The notes under the pieces are model-generated. The model was not told the DNA's origin, did no database searches, and was given only the letters and a program-made list of their open reading frames with translations. A program made the position numbers and the translations under genes. From a virus (Duplodnaviria; Heunggongvirae; Uroviricota; Caudoviricetes), in IMG/VR virus record IMGVR_UViG_2651869750_000008: DNA of 6,459 nt; one strand, given 5' to 3'. Shown here one piece after another: positions 500 through 6,459 of this stretch. Each line of letters opens with the position of its first letter. Position 1 is the first letter of the stretch.

Positions 500-931
500 A
501 TGTTTCTGAAAACAGAACAATTTGAATATAACGGTGTGTCCGTCACGCTTTCCGAGCTGTCTGCGCTGCAGCGTATTGAGCATCTTGCCCTCCTGAAACG
601 GCGTGCAGAACAGGCAGAATCCAGCGGCAACCTGCAGGTAAGCGTGGAAGATCTCGTCAGAACCGGCGCGTTTCTGGTGGCGATGTCCCTGTGGCATAAC
701 CATCCGCAGAAAACGGCATCACCGTCAATGAATGAGGCTGTGATGCAGATCGAACAGGAGGTGCTCACCACCTGGCCTGCGGATGCCATTGCCCGGGCGG
801 AAGATGTGGTGTTGCGTCTGTCCGGGATGAGCGGGGCTGTTCATGCGGATACTGACAGCACCGAAGTGGCGAAAAATAACGCACTGACTGATGATGATTT
901 TTCTGCGGGAAAGTCTTCGACGGCGAGCTGA
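500..931 (+). CDS. G: Tail assembly chaperone G
   Basis: ATG 500 preceded by GGAGG (489-493, 6-nt spacer). 143 aa; MFLKTEQFEYNGVSVTLSELSALQRIEHLALLKRRAEQAES... closely matches recalled lambda gpG. Position between V and H. Stop TGA 929-931, 16 nt after the slippery heptamer. Confidence 0.92.
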   Translation: MFLKTEQFEYNGVSVTLSELSALQRIEHLALLKRRAEQAESSGNLQVSVEDLVRTGAFLVAMSLWHNHPQKTASPSMNEAVMQIEQEVLTTWPADAIARAEDVVLRLSGMSGAVHADTDSTEVAKNNALTDDDFSAGKSSTAS

Positions 932-1371
932 ATTTTGCCCTCAGACTGGCGCGTGAGATGGGGAGGCCTGACTGGCGCGCCATGCTTGCCGGGATGACAT
1001 CCACCGAATATGCCGACTGGCGACATTTTTACCGTACGCATTATTTTCACGATACCCAACTGGATATGCATTTTTCCGGGCTGACGTACGCCGTACTCAG
1101 CCTGTTTTTTTGCGATCCGGATATGCATCCCTCTGATTTCAGTCTGCTTGCCCCCCGGCATGAGGAAGAGCAGACGGAGAGGCCGGATGAGGAAAAAATG
1201 CTGATGCAGAAAGCGGCAGGACTTGCCGGAGGCGTACGGTTCGGTGGGGACGGAGGGCGCGAGATTTTATCGTCTGCGGATGTGGCGGATGTCAGCGAGG
1301 ATGATGCCGCATTAATGATGGCTTCAGCGGGGATTCCCGGAGGTGTGAGATATGTCCCAGCCGGTTGGTGA
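500..1371 (+). CDS. T: Tail assembly chaperone G-T fusion (G residues 1-~138 joined to T by -1 frameshift at 907-913)
   Basis: The T reading frame (frame 1, open through 1371; ORF track 958-1371) has no ribosome-binding site of its own and its first ATG at 958 is internal. The sequence after the shift (GRPDWRAMLAGMTSTEYADWRHFYRTHYFHD...GGVRY) matches recalled lambda gpT. The 3' end overlaps the H start by 20 nt. Confidence 0.85.
907..913 (+). other. Programmed -1 ribosomal frameshift slippery heptamer G GGA AAG (G to G-T)
   Basis: GGGAAAG sits in G zero frame as GCG GGA AAG (X XXY YYZ), six codons before the G stop. The -1 frame continues open as VFDGELNFALRLAREMGRPDW... to TGA 1369-1371. 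Same heptamer and placement as the lambda G/GT shift site. Confidence 0.85.
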
Positions 1372-3931
1372 TCTTGTTATTGACCTGAGTCTGGATGCGG
1401 TCCGTTTCGATGAGCAGATGAGCCGGGTAAGGCGTCATTTTTCAGGACTGGAGACCGACGCCAGAAAAACCGCCAGTGCCGTTGAACAGAACCTGAGCCG
1501 CCAGGCGCTGGCTGCACAAAAAGCCGGGATTTCCGTCGGGCAGTATAAAGCGGCCATGCGAACCCTGCCCGCACAGTTTACGGATATCGCCACGCAGCTT
1601 GCCGGTGGTCAGAATCCCTGGCTGATCCTGCTGCAACAGGGCGGTCAGGTGAAGGACTCCTTCGGCGGGATGATCCCCATGTTCAGGGGACTTGCCGGTG
1701 CGATCACCCTGCCGATGGTGGGGGCCACCTCGCTGGCGGTGGCGACCGGTGCGCTGGCGTATGCCTGGTATCAGGGCAACTCAACCCTGTCCGATTTCAA
1801 CAAAACGCTGGTCCTTTCCGGCAATCAGGCGGGACTGACGGCAGATCGTATTCTGGCCCTGTCCAGAGCCGGGCAGGCGGCAGGGCTGACGTTTAACCAG
1901 ACCAGCGAGTCACTGACGGCGCTGGTGAATGCCGGTGTGCGTGGTGGTGAGCAGTTTGATGCCATCAACCAGAGTGTCGCGCGTTTTGCGTCTGCATCCG
2001 GTGTGGAGGTGGACAAGGTTGCAGAGGCTTTCGGAAAACTGACCACCGACCCGACGTCGGGACTGATGGCGATGGCGCGCCAGTTCCGTAACGTGACGGC
2101 AGAGCAGATTGCGTATGTTGCACAGCTGCAGCGTTCCGGAGACGAGGCCGGGGCATTGCAGGCGGCGAACGATATCGCCACGAAAGGCTTTGATGAGCAG
2201 ACCCGTCGCCTGAAAGAAAACATGGGAACACTGGAGACCTGGGCGGATAAAACAGGGAAGGCATTCAAATCGATGTGGGATGCCATTCTGGATATCGGTC
2301 GTCCTGAGTCCTCAGCGGATATGCTCGCCAGTGCACAGAAGGCATTTGATGAGGCGGATAAAAAATGGCAGTGGTACCAGAGCCGGAGCCAGCGCCGGGG
2401 AAAGACCTCCTCTTTCCGTGCCAACCTGCAGGGCGCATGGGATGACCGGGAAAATGCCCGTCTGGGGCTGGCAGCGGCCACGCTGCAGTCGGATATGGAA
2501 AAAGCCGGTGAACTGGCTACCAGGGACCGGGCCGAACGGGACGCATCACAGCTGAAGTATACCGGAGAGGCGCAGAAGGCGTATGAGCGTCTGCTGACGC
2601 CGCTGGAGAAATATACTAACCGGCAGGAAGAGCTGAATAAGGCCCTGAAAGACGGGAAAATCCTGCAGGCGGATTACAACACGCTGATGGCGGCGGCGAA
2701 AAAGGATTATGAATCGACGCTGAAAAAGCCGAAGTCGTCAGGTGTTAAAGTGTCAGCCGGTGAGCGTCAGGAAGACCTGACGCATGCGGCGCTGCTGGCG
2801 CTTGAAACCGAGCTCCGGACGCTGGAGAAGCACAGCGGAGCGAATGAGAAAATCAGCCAGCAGCGCCGGGATTTGTGGAAGGCGGAGAGTCAGTTCGCGG
2901 TACTGGAGGAGGCGGCGCAACGTCGCCAGCTGTCTGCACAGGAGAAATCCCTGCTGGCCCATGAGCAAGAGACGCTGGAGTACAAACGCCAGCTGGCTGA
3001 CCTGGGTGACAAGGTTGAATACCAGAAACGGCTGAATGAGCTGGCAAATCAGGCTGTGCGGTTTGAACAGCAGCAGAGTGCGAAGCAGGCTGCAATCAGC
3101 GCAAAAGCCCGGGGGCTGACGGACCGTCAGGCACAGCGGGAGTCGGAATCGCAGCGCCTTCGTGACGTGTACGGTGATAATCCGGATGCGCTGGCGAAGG
3201 CCACATCTGCACTGAAGAACACCTGGTCTGCGGAGGAGCAGCTTCGTGGAAGCTGGATGGCCGGTCTGAAGTCCGGCTGGGGCGAGTGGGCAGAAAGTGC
3301 GACGGACAGTTTTTCGCAGGTTAAAAGCGTGGCCACGCAGACCTTTGACGGTATTGCACAGAATATGGCAGCGATGCTGACCGGCAGCGAACAGAGCTGG
3401 CGTGGTTTCACCCGTTCTGTGCTCTCCATGCTGACAGAGATTTTTCTGAAGCAGGCCATGGTGGGGATTGTCGGGAGTATTGGCAGCGCCATGGGTGGTG
3501 CTTTCGGTGGTGGGGCGTCTGCCTCCACGGGGACGGCCATTCAGGCTGCGGCGGCGAACTTCCATTTCGCGACCGGAGGATTTACGGGAACCGGTGGCAA
3601 ATACGAACCTGCCGGTATTGTCCACCGCGGGGAGTTTGTCTTCACGAAGGAGGCAACCAGCCGGATTGGCGTCGGCAACCTGTATCGTCTGATGCGCGGG
3701 TATGCGGAAGGTGGTTATGTGGGCGGTGCCGGAAGTCCGGCGCAGATGCGGCGGGCGGAAGGCATTAGTTTTAATCAGAACAATCACGTGGTGATTCAGA
3801 ACGACGGCACCAACGGACAGGCGGGGCCGCAGCTGATGAAGGCGGTGTATGACATGGCCCGCAAGGGGGCGCAGGATGAGATTCAGGCGCAGATGCGTGA
3901 TGGCGGCGTCTTTTCCGGAGGCAGGCGATGA
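1352..3931 (+). CDS. H: Tail tape measure protein H
   Basis: 859-aa ORF; ATG 1352 preceded by GGAGG (1339-1343). N-terminus MSQPVGDLVIDLSLDAVRFDEQMSRVRRHF and C-terminus ...GEFVFTKEATSRIGVGNLYRLMRGYA...MRDGGVFSGG match recalled lambda gpH (853 aa). Long charged, alpha-helical central region plus Gly/Ala-rich hydrophobic segment near the C-terminus, typical of tape measure proteins. Confidence 0.95.
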   Translation: MSQPVGDLVIDLSLDAVRFDEQMSRVRRHFSGLETDARKTASAVEQNLSRQALAAQKAGISVGQYKAAMRTLPAQFTDIATQLAGGQNPWLILLQQGGQVKDSFGGMIPMFRGLAGAITLPMVGATSLAVATGALAYAWYQGNSTLSDFNKTLVLSGNQAGLTADRILALSRAGQAAGLTFNQTSESLTALVNAGVRGGEQFDAINQSVARFASASGVEVDKVAEAFGKLTTDPTSGLMAMARQFRNVTAEQIAYVAQLQRSGDEAGALQAANDIATKGFDEQTRRLKENMGTLETWADKTGKAFKSMWDAILDIGRPESSADMLASAQKAFDEADKKWQWYQSRSQRRGKTSSFRANLQGAWDDRENARLGLAAATLQSDMEKAGELATRDRAERDASQLKYTGEAQKAYERLLTPLEKYTNRQEELNKALKDGKILQADYNTLMAAAKKDYESTLKKPKSSGVKVSAGERQEDLTHAALLALETELRTLEKHSGANEKISQQRRDLWKAESQFAVLEEAAQRRQLSAQEKSLLAHEQETLEYKRQLADLGDKVEYQKRLNELANQAVRFEQQQSAKQAAISAKARGLTDRQAQRESESQRLRDVYGDNPDALAKATSALKNTWSAEEQLRGSWMAGLKSGWGEWAESATDSFSQVKSVATQTFDGIAQNMAAMLTGSEQSWRGFTRSVLSMLTEIFLKQAMVGIVGSIGSAMGGAFGGGASASTGTAIQAAAANFHFATGGFTGTGGKYEPAGIVHRGEFVFTKEATSRIGVGNLYRLMRGYAEGGYVGGAGSPAQMRRAEGISFNQNNHVVIQNDGTNGQAGPQLMKAVYDMARKGAQDEIQAQMRDGGVFSGGRR

Positions 3932-4257
3932 AAACATTTCGCTGGAAAGTGAAGCCGGATATGGAGGTGAACTCGCAGCCATCGGTGCGTGAAGTGCGTT
4001 TTGGTGACGGGTATTCGCAGCGTATGGCGGCGGGGCTGAATGCTGACCTGAAAACATACCGTGTGACGCTTTCCGTGACCCGGGAGGAGGCCCGACATCT
4101 GGAGGCATTCCTGGCAGAGCACGGTGGCTGGAAGGCGTTTCTGTGGACACCGCCTTATGCCTGGCGGCAGATAAAGGTGACCTGTGCCGCCTGGTCATCA
4201 CGGGTTCGCATGCTGCGGGTTGAATTCAGTGCCGAGTTTAAGCAGGTGGTGAACTGA
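3928..4257 (+). CDS. M: Tail tip protein M
   Basis: 109 aa; MKTFRWKVKP...GGWKAFLWTPPYAWRQIKVTCAAWSSRVRMLRVEFSAEFKQVVN matches recalled lambda gpM. ATG 3928-3930 overlaps the H stop (ATGA); GGAGG at 3917-3921. Confidence 0.93.
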   Translation: MKTFRWKVKPDMEVNSQPSVREVRFGDGYSQRMAAGLNADLKTYRVTLSVTREEARHLEAFLAEHGGWKAFLWTPPYAWRQIKVTCAAWSSRVRMLRVEFSAEFKQVVN

Positions 4258-4955
4258 TGCAGGATATTCACGAAGAAAGTCTGAACGAGTCGGTTAAATC
4301 AGAGCAGTCACCGCGGGTGGTGCTCTGGGAAATTGACCTGACGGTGCAGGGCGGTGAGCGGTATTTTTTCTGTAATGAGCTGAATGAAAAAGGGGAGGCG
4401 GTCACCTGGCAGGGGCGGCAATATCAGGCATACCCGATTGACGGCAGTGGCTTTGAGATGAACGGGAAGGGCAGCAGTGCCCGCCCGTCGCTGACGGTGT
4501 CGAATCTGTTCGGTCTGGTCACCGGAATGGCGGAGGACCTGCAGAGCCTGGTGGGGGCCACGGTGGTCCGCCGCCGGGTGTATGCCCGTTTTCTGGATGC
4601 GGTGAATTTTGTGGCGGGCAATCCGGAAGCGGACCCGGAGCAGGAGCTGAGCGACCGCTGGGTGGTGGAGCAGATGTCAGAGCTGACGGCCATGACAGCC
4701 TCGTTTGTGCTGGCAACACCGACGGAGACGGACGGAGCGCTGTTTCCCGGTCGCATCATGCTGGCGAACACCTGTATGTGGGATTACCGGGGAGATGAAT
4801 GCGGGTATAACGGTCCTGCGGTGGCGGATGAGTTCGATAAACCCACCACCGATATCCGTAAGGACAGATGCAGCAAGTGCATGCGCGGGTGTGAGATGCG
4901 CGGCATGGTGGCTAATTTTGGCGGTTTCCTTTCCATTAACAAACTTTCGCAGTAA
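4257..4955 (+). CDS. L: Tail tip protein L (predicted iron-sulfur cluster binding)
   Basis: 232 aa; MQDIHEESLNE...VVLWEIDLT...GGERYFFCNE...FGGFLSINKLSQ matches recalled lambda gpL. Start overlaps the M stop by 1 nt (TGATG at 4255-4259). C-terminal cysteine cluster with codons at 4773, 4800, 4869, 4878 and 4890. Confidence 0.95.
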   Translation: MQDIHEESLNESVKSEQSPRVVLWEIDLTVQGGERYFFCNELNEKGEAVTWQGRQYQAYPIDGSGFEMNGKGSSARPSLTVSNLFGLVTGMAEDLQSLVGATVVRRRVYARFLDAVNFVAGNPEADPEQELSDRWVVEQMSELTAMTASFVLATPTETDGALFPGRIMLANTCMWDYRGDECGYNGPAVADEFDKPTTDIRKDRCSKCMRGCEMRGMVANFGGFLSINKLSQ

Positions 4956-4960
4956 ATCCA

Positions 4961-5704
4961 ATGACACAGACAGAATCAGCGATTCTGGCGCATGCCCGGC
5001 GGTGTGTGCCTGCGGAGTCGTGCGGCTTCGTGGTGAGAACGCCGGAGGGGGAGCGGTATATCCCTTGTGTGAATATCTCTGCAGAGCCGGAGGCGTATTT
5101 TCGTATTGCACCGGAAGACTGGCTGCGGGCAGAGATGCAGGGGGAGATTGTGGCACTGGTCCACAGTCATCCCGGTGGTCTGCCCTGGCTGAGCGAGGCC
5201 GACCGGCGGCTGCAGATAAAAAGTGCACTGTCCTGGTGGCTGGTCTGCCGGGGGGAAATTCATAAATTCCGCTGTGTGCCACATCTGACAGGACGGCGCT
5301 TTGAGCACGGGGTGACGGACTGTTACACGCTGTTCCGGGATGCCTACCATCTGGCGGGAATTGATATGCCGGATTTTGAGCGTGAGGATGACTGGTGGCG
5401 CAACGGTCAGAACCTTTACCTGGACAATATGGAGGCGACTGGTTTTTACAGGATTTCCCTGCCTTCCGCACAGCCTGGCGATATCCTGCTGTGCTGCTTT
5501 GGCGCATCGGTGGCCAATCATGCCGCCATATACTGCGGCAACGGTGAGCTGCTTCACCATCTGCCTGAACAACTGAGTAAACGGGAGAGGTATTCCGAAA
5601 AATGGCAACGACGAACGCATTCAGCCTGGCGTCACCGCCACTGGCACGTATCTGCCTTCACGGGGATTTACAACGATTTGGCCGCCGCCTCAGCCTGTAT
5701 GTGA
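4961..5704 (+). CDS. K: Tail tip assembly protein K (N-terminal JAMM/MPN metalloprotease-like domain + C-terminal NlpC/P60-like domain)
   Basis: 247-aa ORF; MTQTESAILAHARRC...matches recalled lambda K. Exact JAMM motif H-x-H-x7-S-x2-D (HSHPGGLPWLSEAD) at nt 5162-5203. C-terminal half carries conserved Cys/His (GVTDCYTLF ... NHAAIYCG ... LLHH) consistent with NlpC/P60. The start at 4961 is needed to include the sequence upstream of the JAMM motif; no in-frame Met occurs before M59. Confidence 0.9.
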   Translation: MTQTESAILAHARRCVPAESCGFVVRTPEGERYIPCVNISAEPEAYFRIAPEDWLRAEMQGEIVALVHSHPGGLPWLSEADRRLQIKSALSWWLVCRGEIHKFRCVPHLTGRRFEHGVTDCYTLFRDAYHLAGIDMPDFEREDDWWRNGQNLYLDNMEATGFYRISLPSAQPGDILLCCFGASVANHAAIYCGNGELLHHLPEQLSKRERYSEKWQRRTHSAWRHRHWHVSAFTGIYNDLAAASACM

Positions 5705-6282
5705 ACACGGCAGCGGAAGCCATCCGTGCCCTGTCGATGCAGATGCCGGGATTCCGCCGTCAGATGAACGAAGGCTGGTACCAGATACGTATTCGCGGTG
5801 AGGACACGGCACCGGAGGCGGTGTACGCCCGTCTTCACGAACAGCTGGGTGAGGGAACGGTCATCCACATTGTGCCGCGACTGGCCGGGGCCGGAAAGGG
5901 TGGACTGCAGATTGTGCTGGGGGCGGCAGCCATCGTGGGCTCTTTCTTCACGGCCGGAGGCTCGATGGCGTTATGGGGTACAGCCCTGAGTGCCGGTGGT
6001 TTTTCTGCCACCACGATGCTGTTTTCACTGGGGGCCAGCATGATTCTGGGCGGTGTGGCCCAGATGCTGGCCCCGAAGGCAAAAACACCGGATTACCGCG
6101 CAACGGATAACGGCAGACAGAACACGTACTTTTCCTCGCTGGATAACATGATTGCCCAGGGGAACCCGATGCCGGTGCCTTACGGTGAAATGCTGGTTGG
6201 CTCCCGCCGTATATCCCAGGACATCAGTACCCGTGATGAAGGCGGTGACGGGAAGGTGGTGGTTATCGGGCGGCAGGCATAA
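5602..6282 (+). CDS. I: Tail tip assembly protein I (N-terminal ubiquitin-like domain ending in Gly-Gly + hydrophobic C-terminal region)
   Basis: 226 aa; ...ARICLHGDLQRFGRR...IHIVPR...QIVLGAAAI...LGGVAQMLAPKA...TDNGRQNTYFSSLDNMIAQGN...VVVIGR matches recalled lambda gpI (223 aa). ATG 5602 lies inside the 3' end of K in a different frame (103-nt overlap). Stop TAA 6280-6282. Confidence 0.93.
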   Translation: MATTNAFSLASPPLARICLHGDLQRFGRRLSLYVNTAAEAIRALSMQMPGFRRQMNEGWYQIRIRGEDTAPEAVYARLHEQLGEGTVIHIVPRLAGAGKGGLQIVLGAAAIVGSFFTAGGSMALWGTALSAGGFSATTMLFSLGASMILGGVAQMLAPKAKTPDYRATDNGRQNTYFSSLDNMIAQGNPMPVPYGEMLVGSRRISQDISTRDEGGDGKVVVIGRQA

Positions 6283-6325
6283 AAGCGAAAAAATCCCGCA
6301 GTGCTCACGGACAGGAACTGCGGGA
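6283..6325 (-). terminator. Candidate Rho-independent terminator oriented for minus-strand transcription
   Basis: Inverted repeat CCCGCAGT (6295-6302) / ACTGCGGG (6317-6324), extendable by a T6294-A6325 pair, with a 14-nt loop. The plus strand has an A-run (6288-6293) 5' of the stem, so the minus strand reads stem-loop then ATTTTTTCGCTT. The plus-strand 3' flank (AGAGTTACG) is not U-rich. The loop is rather large for a canonical terminator. Confidence 0.4.
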
Positions 6326-6459
6326 GAGTTACGAAGATTGAGTGTAAGGAATTATTCTTATGTGTAAGCGCATCATTTAAACCGTCTTTCGCCTCCCTTT
6401 CCTGTTTCCGATACTAATGTCCATTTTCGCAGTAAAAGGACATTTAAGATGAATGCACG

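Follow-up and report, generated by a model that had tools for sequence, protein, structure and literature searches.

A phage lambda-type gpK/gpI pair in an E. coli lambdoid prophage and a candidate processing site for its ubiquitin-like domain

The closest described counterparts of the locus analysed here are gpK and gpI of phage lambda (PDB 8iyk, 8iyl, 8k35, 8xcg, 9e7m). In lambda virions, the C-terminal part of gpI assembles into a trimeric tripod, which plugs the lumen of the tail tip and holds the C-terminus of gpH; gpI has been modelled over residues 134/135–223 only, and its linker is not resolved (PMC10721106, PMC12617516). By mass spectrometry, gpK is absent from lambda virions (PMC10721106). 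The same technique detected a single gpI peptide in virions (9.87% coverage, equal to 22 residues), which we infer to be the C-terminal tryptic peptide. Processing of I by K was predicted in 2006 by Iyer et al., who suggested that both peptidase domains of K act on I (PMC1779556), and has since been reported experimentally for lambda. A 2025 meeting report states that gpK cleaves gpI; its summary describes zinc-dependent cleavage at the C-terminus of the ubiquitin-like (Ubl) domain and gives no site (PMC12908700). Our literature search for a full paper on gpK–gpI cleavage found this meeting report only.

The relationship is remote (E 1.2e-10 to the profile) for the P. aeruginosa F-pyocin, a tailocin and not a phage, in which PA0639 is gpK-like and PA0640 is the tip plug. 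PA0640 carries an N-terminal domain as in I, ending in IVP-x3-GSK, that is removed on maturation, and of PA0640 only the C-terminal part is visible in the particle; mass spectrometry found the N-terminus in stalled tips and not in mature particles. On expression of PA0640 by itself in E. coli, host proteases removed the N-terminus, indicating that K is not the sole possible protease. The initial annotation of our locus considered K–I processing to have little experimental support, a view made out of date by the lambda meeting report and the F-pyocin mass spectrometry. Outside phages, archaeal JAMM1 with SAMP1/SAMP2 and M. tuberculosis Mec+ with CysO also combine a JAMM protease with a MoaD-type Ubl protein, and in both the protease cleaves its beta-grasp partner at the C-terminal tail.

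A lambda-type K–I pair in an E. coli prophage

The window (the whole stretch of DNA analysed, 6,459 nucleotides) belongs to an E. coli lambdoid prophage with a gpK/gpI pair of the phage lambda type, and is an ordinary copy. Open reading frames and Pfam searches identified V, G/T, H, M, L, K and I as the only genes encoded, with the order L–K–I common to the window and lambda. Identity to phage JLK-2012 was 98%, and tail modules of this kind are very common in lambdoid prophages: 4471 of the 5426 complete E. coli genomes had matches, at a median of three places per genome. Over K–I, DNA identity was 96–98% to Escherichia phage JLK-2012 and to Stx-converting lambdoid E. coli prophages, homology to which stops at position 6363, 3' of I. 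Every relative obtained from a scan of viral contigs was at least 95% identical, too close to be of use for comparison, and the diverse relatives came from a scan of genome contigs. K lay directly 5' of I, with translational overlap, in 44/44 loci compared, and the annotated neighbours of K–I in relatives were tail genes, J, an IS element and sodC. The K–I pair of the window is real, intact and already known, and the window, as one of thousands of near-identical prophage copies, adds little by itself. Every coordinate of the initial annotation proved correct on re-reading of the sequence (Table 1), as did its description of the architecture as fully intact: intactness and conservation extend to both domains, every catalytic residue, the fold and the arrangement of the genes.

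Table 1 Features of the K–I region, numbered from the first nucleotide of the window
Feature	Position	Strand	Basis or remark
Gene K	4961..5704	+	247 aa; open reading frame; start 6 nt past the L stop; predicted tail-tip assembly protease
JAB/MPN+ (JAMM) metalloprotease domain, K residues 3–105	4967..5275	+	PF14464
Glu19 codon, upstream catalytic Glu of the JAMM motif	5015..5017	+	Sequence; invariant in 18 diverged K orthologues
JAMM zinc-binding motif H68-S-H70-x7-S78-x2-D81	5162..5203	+	Exact match
NlpC/P60 (C40) papain-like domain, K residues 111–224	5291..5632	+	PF00877
NlpC/P60 residue Cys121	5321..5323	+	
NlpC/P60 residue His187	5519..5521	+	
NlpC/P60 residues His199-His200	5555..5560	+	
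K/I overlap, 103 nt	5602..5704	+	Different frames; K stop 5704, I start 5602
Gene I	5602..6282	+	226 aa; predicted tail-tip plug precursor
Ubiquitin-like beta-grasp domain, I residues 14–97	5641..5892	+	PF06805 and AF2
Pro92-Arg-Leu-Ala-Gly96-Ala97, conserved Ubl tail	5875..5892	+	Putative cleavage region
Gly100-Gly101, diglycine of the initial annotation	5899..5904	+	Kept in close relatives
Hydrophobic Gly/Ala-rich linker, I residues 102–136	5905..6009	+	Read from sequence
C-terminal plug domain, I residues 137–226	6010..6279	+	Match to virion gpI

Relative to lambda, the window's K is 86% and its I 65% identical, with the same domains and identical JAMM and NlpC/P60 residues; I is 3 residues longer than lambda I, to which it aligned over its full length (8iyk_I, E 9.4e-94). 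Profile searches assigned two peptidase domains to K. Prok-JAB (PF14464) matched the N-terminal domain at 56.6 bits (cut-off 25; E 2.9e-15), for which the best solved sequence match was the Prok-JAB protein 2kks_A, and NLPC_P60 (PF00877) matched at 49.9 bits (cut-off 23; E 3.5e-13). The exact JAMM motif claimed for K in the initial annotation was borne out by residues 68–81, HSHPGGLPWLSEAD. Across 18 K orthologues with identity down to 35%, E19, H68, S69, H70, P71, S78 and D81 were invariant, as were D120-C121-Y122, N186-H187 and H199-H200 of the NlpC/P60 domain. Structural comparison used P0310, a K homologue 86–88% identical to, and distinct from, the window's own K, which AF2 modelled at pLDDT 85–97 over K. 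The top Foldseek matches of its JAB domain were P. furiosus JAMM1 (5lda_A, E 6.5e-6; 5ld9_A, E 1.5e-5), the SAMP-cleaving enzyme, solved with or without SAMP2, together with Rpn11 and CSN5; fold matches of its NlpC/P60 domain included MepS and LytE. Profiles and the homologue's model confirm the assignment of K as a Prok-JAB plus NlpC/P60 protein, with a predicted MPN fold and a Cys-His-polar catalytic triad.

Fold and tail of the I N-terminus

The Lambda_tail_I profile (PF06805) matched I residues 15–97 at 59.2 bits (cut-off 23.8; E 5.6e-16); like the two matches in K, this one does not arise by chance. The AF2 model of I had pLDDT 94–98 at residues 11–90 and placed elements in the order b1 14–19, b2 29–33, helix 37–47, strand 60–64, helix 71–78 and strand 87–92. 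The top Foldseek match of this region was MoaD (6jc0_A, E 1.3e-4, TM 0.74), with further matches to SAMP1 (3po0), CysO (3dwg_C), ThiS, Urm1 and ubiquitin. A sequence profile of the Ubl domain searched against PDB sequences gave no significant match to MoaD and reached only a MoaD-related protein at E 1.2; the fold search did reach MoaD. The I N-terminus is confidently predicted, on the model, to be a beta-grasp fold with MoaD, SAMP1 and CysO as its nearest solved relatives. The initial annotation had extended this fold over approximately residues 14–101; the fold itself is upheld by the prediction, but the domain ends at about 96–97. Beyond it, pLDDT fell below 50 at residues 98–103, and AF2 placed low-confidence helices at 101–117 and 121–130 in the linker. 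The C-terminal plug domain matched the 90-residue gpI chains of 9e7m at E 8e-38.

Systems that pair a JAMM protease with a MoaD-type Ubl protein supply the nearest solved folds of both partners: PfJAMM1 (5lda/5ld9) is nearest to the K JAB domain, and SAMP1, MoaD and CysO are nearest to the I N-terminus. Unlike JAMM1/SAMP and Mec+/CysO, the window's Ubl domain makes up the N-terminal part of a structural protein, its tail has Gly-Ala in place of Gly-Gly at the probable homologous position, its K has an additional NlpC/P60 domain, and neither an E1 partner nor sulfur chemistry is implied.

Residues 92–101 of I read PRLAGAGKGG, offering two candidate ends for the Ubl tail. The first, Gly96-Ala97, is conserved family-wide: among 90 diverse relatives, P92 was present in 86, G96 in 85, alanine or serine at position 97 in 75, and P-x3-G in 81. 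An hhalign comparison aligned G96-A97 to the Gly-Gly that ends MoaD, SAMP1 and CysO, at low probabilities (10–68%), which would make Gly96-Ala97 the position homologous to the Ubl terminal Gly-Gly. The second is the Gly100-Gly101 pair highlighted by the initial annotation, which is present as described but is not the conserved end of the domain: it lies 4 residues past Gly96-Ala97 in the stretch of pLDDT below 50, G100 was found in only 39 of the 90 relatives and G101 in 69, its spacing from the domain shifted by 1–5 residues, and the pair is missing altogether from some relatives, such as those reading GAGK-FGQ and GAKSGFF. Both the fixed Pro92-x3-Gly96-Ala97 and its alignment to the MoaD, SAMP1 and CysO termini favour a cut near Ala97. 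On sequence conservation, the scissile bond of I more likely lies at Gly96-Ala97 (after Ala97, or after Gly96) than after Gly101.

Cleavage after Gly101, with Gly96-Ala97 only part of an extended recognition tail, is possible but doubtful. Gly-Gly is the canonical P2-P1 pair of JAMM enzymes, G101 was invariant in 18 K/I pairs, and both glycines are found in lambda and the window, which share a Pro-x3-Gly-Ala ... Gly-Gly tail (GAGKGG in the window, GAKSGG in lambda); against this stand the poor conservation of G100, the variable spacing, the relatives lacking Gly-Gly, and the homology alignments that place the MoaD/SAMP1/CysO terminus on G96-A97. The preferred site yields a testable prediction, namely that processing would occur at the family-wide Pro-x3-Gly-Ala (Gly96-Ala97) and not at the local Gly-Gly.

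Probable processing of I and alternative roles of K

We consider it likely that K trims a Ubl handle off a tail-tip plug precursor, I, and that the residual I is the trimeric plug. I would be made as a precursor consisting of a MoaD/SAMP-like Ubl domain (residues 14–97), the hydrophobic linker and the C-terminal plug domain. K would be a cytoplasmic assembly factor that stays out of the virion, and its JAMM zinc protease would recognize the Ubl domain of I and remove it after I enters the J/L tip complex. The remaining C-terminal I would then form a trimeric plug that holds the C-terminus of the tape-measure protein and closes the tail tip, making the Ubl domain a removable handle or an assembly checkpoint. 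Profiles, models, fold searches and the literature agree with the initial idea of a JAB/MPN protease that processes an N-terminal Ubl partner; the cleavage activity of K, its absence from virions and the visibility of gpI from 134/135 onward come from the lambda literature rather than from this prophage. A K:I model built on P0310, which is a natural frameshift fusion in a relative, folded K well and gave Ubl b1–b2 a pLDDT of ~40. The low b1–b2 values in the fusion model are probably due to K tails filling those alignment columns.

The division of labour within K could differ from this scheme. The NlpC/P60 domain, and not JAB, may cut I, or may cut a second time, within the I linker or tape-measure H, a reading we regard as improbable. 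It would account for the invariance of the Cys-His-His triad and for the ordering of virion gpI from residue 134 only, it has a precedent in the proposal of Iyer et al. that both peptidase domains process I (PMC1779556), and it would provide a candidate for the gpH to gpH* protease; the absence of K from virions also makes a peptidoglycan-cutting role during infection unlikely. However, the meeting report credits gpK while describing only a deubiquitinating domain, without mention of NlpC/P60, the pairing of a JAB domain with a Ubl protein is recurrent and specific, and gpH is cleaved late, after tube assembly, whereas K acts at the tip stage.

Speculation in a preprint on Bil (10.1101/2023.09.04.556158) suggests another target, in which the K JAB domain would also, or instead, serve as a counter-defence deubiquitinase that strips host Bil-type Ubls from the central tail fibre J. 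K would act at the tip complex, where J is located, but it is always paired with its own Ubl substrate, I, which is sufficient reason for its presence, and we find a counter-defence role quite unlikely.

[quoted passage not shown] Cryo-EM cannot tell a disordered domain from an absent one, yet widely diverged orthologues share invariant JAMM catalytic residues, the meeting report says that cleavage occurs, F-pyocin N-terminal peptides were found in stalled tips and not in mature particles, and lambda virions yielded a single gpI peptide.

Conjugation of the I Ubl domain through its C-terminus to another tail protein, with K as the maturing or deconjugating enzyme, was raised by the initial annotation and recalls the MoaD/SAMP-like fold and the conjugation of SAMPs in archaea, but it is extremely improbable and unsupported here. 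Unlike the conjugation systems Bil and CBASS Cap2/Cap3, which encode E1/E2 with a Ubl and a DUB, no E1 or E2 gene was found in the window or beside K–I in related loci by open reading frames, Pfam and annotated neighbours; the Ubl domain is N-terminal with the structural part after it, and so needs only removal; and no such adduct appears in lambda virion structures or mass spectrometry. We give similarly little credence to the analogy, based on the fold and the adjacency of L, in which the released MoaD/CysO-like domain would carry sulfur or act as a small modifier, with charging by a host MoeB/ThiF-type E1, and would serve the [4Fe-4S] cluster of L, with K resembling the JAMM enzyme Mec+ acting on CysO.

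Overlapping frames and start codons

The initial annotation placed the start of I 103 nt inside K, as in lambda, and this arrangement matches lambda-identical loci (in one of these, L085, K stops at 2103 and the I ATG is at 2001). Overlaps of 97–106 nt were found in Escherichia, Citrobacter, Edwardsiella, Morganella, Providencia and Xenorhabdus loci, compared with only 4–8 nt in the Xanthomonas, Burkholderia and Stutzerimonas clade. The substitution rate per nucleotide was 0.235 inside the overlap versus 0.396 outside. In a codon-position test, I codons 1–13 varied in the K-frame pattern and codons 14–33 were constrained in both frames, leading us to reject conservation of the overlap from K alone.

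The ATG at 5602 was the sole start codon of the I open frame within 5581–5692. In two RefSeq relatives inspected, I was automatically annotated from a GTG at Val34, truncating the Ubl fold. We rejected this start, which would remove the first two Ubl strands, a point of consequence for annotation. Clusters comprising thousands of sequences have short I forms (193–210 aa) as their representatives. Glu19 of the JAMM site is absent from the classical 199-aa K. The window differs from lambda in having neither Met14 of I nor Met49 of K, so that it can encode each protein in its long form only.

The protease and its ubiquitin-like partner

The initial annotation had read the K–I gene pair as a JAB/MPN protease coupled to a ubiquitin-like domain, and that reading proved essentially right: the gene pair is genuine and intact and lies where it was placed, with all coordinates given for the JAMM motif, the Gly-Gly codons and the 103-nt overlap correct. 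Pfam assigned K residues 3–105 to Prok-JAB (E 2.9e-15) and residues 111–224 to NlpC/P60 (E 3.5e-13). Across 18 K/I pairs from diverged loci, with identity down to 35%, the complete JAMM motif (E19, C21, G22, H68, S69, H70, P71, S78 and D81) and the NlpC/P60 triad (D120-C121-Y122, N186-H187 and H199-H200) were invariant. The fold of K was modelled on P0310, a relative's natural K–I fusion comprising K 1–219 and I from about residue 7 to its end (checked block alignment). Its K part was predicted at pLDDT 85–97, with P. furiosus JAMM1, alone and with ubiquitin-like SAMP2 (5ld9, 5lda), as the nearest solved folds, then Rpn11, CSN5 and AMSH; for its second domain, these were MepS and LytE. The ubiquitin-like b1–b2 region was predicted poorly in this model.

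Residues 15–97 of I matched Lambda_tail_I (Pfam, E 5.6e-16), and an AlphaFold2 model from an 82-sequence alignment reached pLDDT 94–98 over residues 11–90, in the order b1 (14–19), b2 (29–33), helix (37–47), strand (60–64), helix (71–78) and strand (87–92). Model confidence dropped from residue 96, falling below 50 at 98–103, and the C-terminal half was predicted poorly as a monomer. Because Foldseek ranked MoaD (6jc0_A, E 1.3e-4, TM 0.74) as the best PDB match, followed by SAMP1 (3po0, 2l52), human MoaD, CysO (3dwg_C), ThiS, Urm1, NEDD8 and ubiquitin, the modelled N-terminal domain was confirmed as a beta-grasp fold of the MoaD/SAMP branch. The hydrophobic linker helices of I scored pLDDT 64–80 in the K–I fusion model (model residues 311–350) versus about 48–56 in I alone and may pack against K, although the two models compared use different sequences.

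The candidate cleavage site

The annotation had the ubiquitin-like domain ending at Gly100-Gly101, the last residues of PRLAGAGKGG (92–101). This pair is present but is not a conserved domain end. At E <= 0.001, the I family comprised 3247 representatives in a library that had been clustered at 50% identity. In a diverse set of 90 full-length members, Pro92 (86/90), Gly96 (85/90), Pro-x3-Gly spacing (81/90) and Ala or Ser at 97 (75/90) predominated, Gly101 occurred in 69/90 and Gly100 in 39/90. The distance from Gly96 to the hydrophobic segment varied (for example, GAGK-FGQ, GAKSGFF and GAGGDNKG). When MoaD, SAMP1 and CysO were aligned by profile, their terminal Gly-Gly fell on Gly96-Ala97 in all three cases, at low probabilities (10–68%). 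Their tails, which we take to be FPPVTGG (MoaD), FPPVSGG (SAMP1) and LPAVAGG (CysO), aligned to IVPRLAGA of I, and the three alignments agreed with one another and with the point at which model confidence drops. A protease that binds the beta-grasp body requires a constant spacing between that body and the bond it cuts; by inference, this favours Gly96-Ala97 as the cleavage site, in the simplest case after Ala97, rather than cleavage after Gly101. This corrected candidate site and the annotation notes below are what the analysis adds.

Proposed processing of I during tail assembly

The K–I system is already known, and the window carries an ordinary family member, its I 65% identical to lambda gpI and its K 86% identical to gpK. 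Iyer, Burroughs and Aravind described exactly this arrangement in 2006 and predicted that the JAB domain frees the ubiquitin-like domain (PMC1779556). The initial annotation was right to cite such a prediction, but its view that this had little experimental support is superseded. An October 2025 bacteriophage conference report of a Davidson laboratory talk states that gpI is cleaved by gpK, only once bound to other tip proteins, timing that enforces assembly order (PMC12908700); searches of the literature library turned up no full-length publication of the lambda gpI cleavage experiment. In a 2026 F-pyocin preprint, peptides from the N-terminus of PA0640, the gpI homologue, were seen in stalled tips but were missing from mature particles, and deletion of the gpK homologue gave tubes without tips. 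Residues 137–223 of I matched the gpI chains, each 90 residues long, in structure 9e7m of the Ur-lambda virion (E 8e-38). In lambda virions, gpK was undetected and gpI was modelled at 134/135–223 only, as a trimeric tripod closing off the tip lumen and clasping the gpH C-terminal helix (PMC10721106, PMC12617516). Virion mass spectrometry recovered one gpI peptide at 9.87% coverage, which equals 22 residues and probably represents the C-terminal tryptic peptide, of that same length.

In the best-supported account, I would be made as a precursor whose ubiquitin-like domain maintains its solubility or prevents it from docking too early; I would then enter the J/L tip complex, the K JAMM site would remove the domain, the C-terminal domain would stay as a plug holding the tape-measure C-terminus, and K would depart last. 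The invariant NlpC/P60 triad of K may carry out a second proteolytic step, in the I linker or gpH. More speculatively, the Bil preprint (10.1101/2023.09.04.556158) suggests that deubiquitinase domains of phages may be directed against the host's attachment of ubiquitin-like tags to the central fibre. Peptidoglycan cutting by K during infection is unlikely, because K is not in virions, and conjugation of the I domain, as also entertained initially, is unsupported, since no E1 or E2 gene lies in the window or beside K–I in related loci.

Gene starts, overlap and the tail module

The window holds a lambda-type tail module from V to I, ending ahead of J.

Features of the tail module in the window
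Feature	Position (nt)	Residues	Detail
V, end of gene	46–486
G	500–931
Slippery heptamer	907–913		GGGAAAG, near G end
T frame	958–1371		open
H	1352–3931
M	3928–4257
L	4257–4955
L cysteine cluster	4770–4925	about 172–223	CMWDYRGDEC ... CSKCMRGC
K	4961–5704
K JAMM motif	5162–5203	68–81	HSHPGGLPWLSEAD
I	5602–6282
I Gly-Gly codons	5899–5904	100–101
I hydrophobic linker helices	5905–6009	102–136
Terminator-like hairpin and T-run	6285–6327		minus strand, directly past I stop
End of homology to most relatives	6363

K lay directly upstream of I in 44/44 loci compared. I starts 103 nt ahead of the K stop in another frame, and loci with lambda-identical sequence have the same overlap, bearing out the likeness to lambda noted initially. 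Overlaps were 97–106 nt, with a conserved ATG, in an enterobacterial clade (Escherichia, Citrobacter, Edwardsiella, Morganella, Providencia and Xenorhabdus); in a Xanthomonas, Burkholderia and Stutzerimonas clade they were 4–8 nt (ATGA or GTGA), with I starting right at b1. By codon-position count, variation followed the K-frame pattern over I codons 1–13, and both frames were constrained over codons 14–33 (b1–b2); the overlap had 0.235 differences per nt versus 0.396 downstream. The ATG at 5602 is the sole window start codon able to supply b1–b2. RefSeq/PGAP entries of close relatives (L001 6741–7322; L143 9201–9785) give I as 193–194 aa, overlapping the K stop by 4 nt, and many database entries are 193–210 aa because the start is set at the Val34 GTG (window region 5602–5703), a choice we rejected as it would delete b1–b2 from a domain whose fold is predicted with confidence. 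Frameshifts or deletions within the 103-nt overlap underlie the fusion proteins P0310, P0294, P0099, P0092, P0384 and P0389; P0310 has the JAB, NlpC/P60 and I domains all complete within one polypeptide. Classical lambda K is 199 aa from Met49, without JAMM Glu19, and Pfam shows NlpC/P60 alone in such entries. Window K starts 6 nt past the L stop and has Ile at residue 49, so the 247-aa form is the only one possible (4961–5107 region).

The G–T layout is the lambda programmed -1 frameshift arrangement, and the L cysteine cluster is consistent with the [4Fe-4S] site reported in lambda gpL and F-pyocin PA0638. Across K–I, identity was 98% with Escherichia phage JLK-2012 and 96–97% with Stx2c-converting phages. 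The whole window, a very common lambdoid prophage module, matched 4471/5426 complete E. coli genomes, and the median number of places per genome was three. E. coli FDAARGOS_1059 carries IS679 at the point matching the end of homology, and a minus-strand sodC between I and J. Lambda-identical K–I loci (L085–L098) on low-coverage contigs of unrelated organisms (Neobacillus, Chromatium, Shewanella, Bradyrhizobium, Paenibacillus and others) look like assembly contamination, as does a Streptomyces flavalbus contig (L082) bearing I at 96% identity to that of this prophage.
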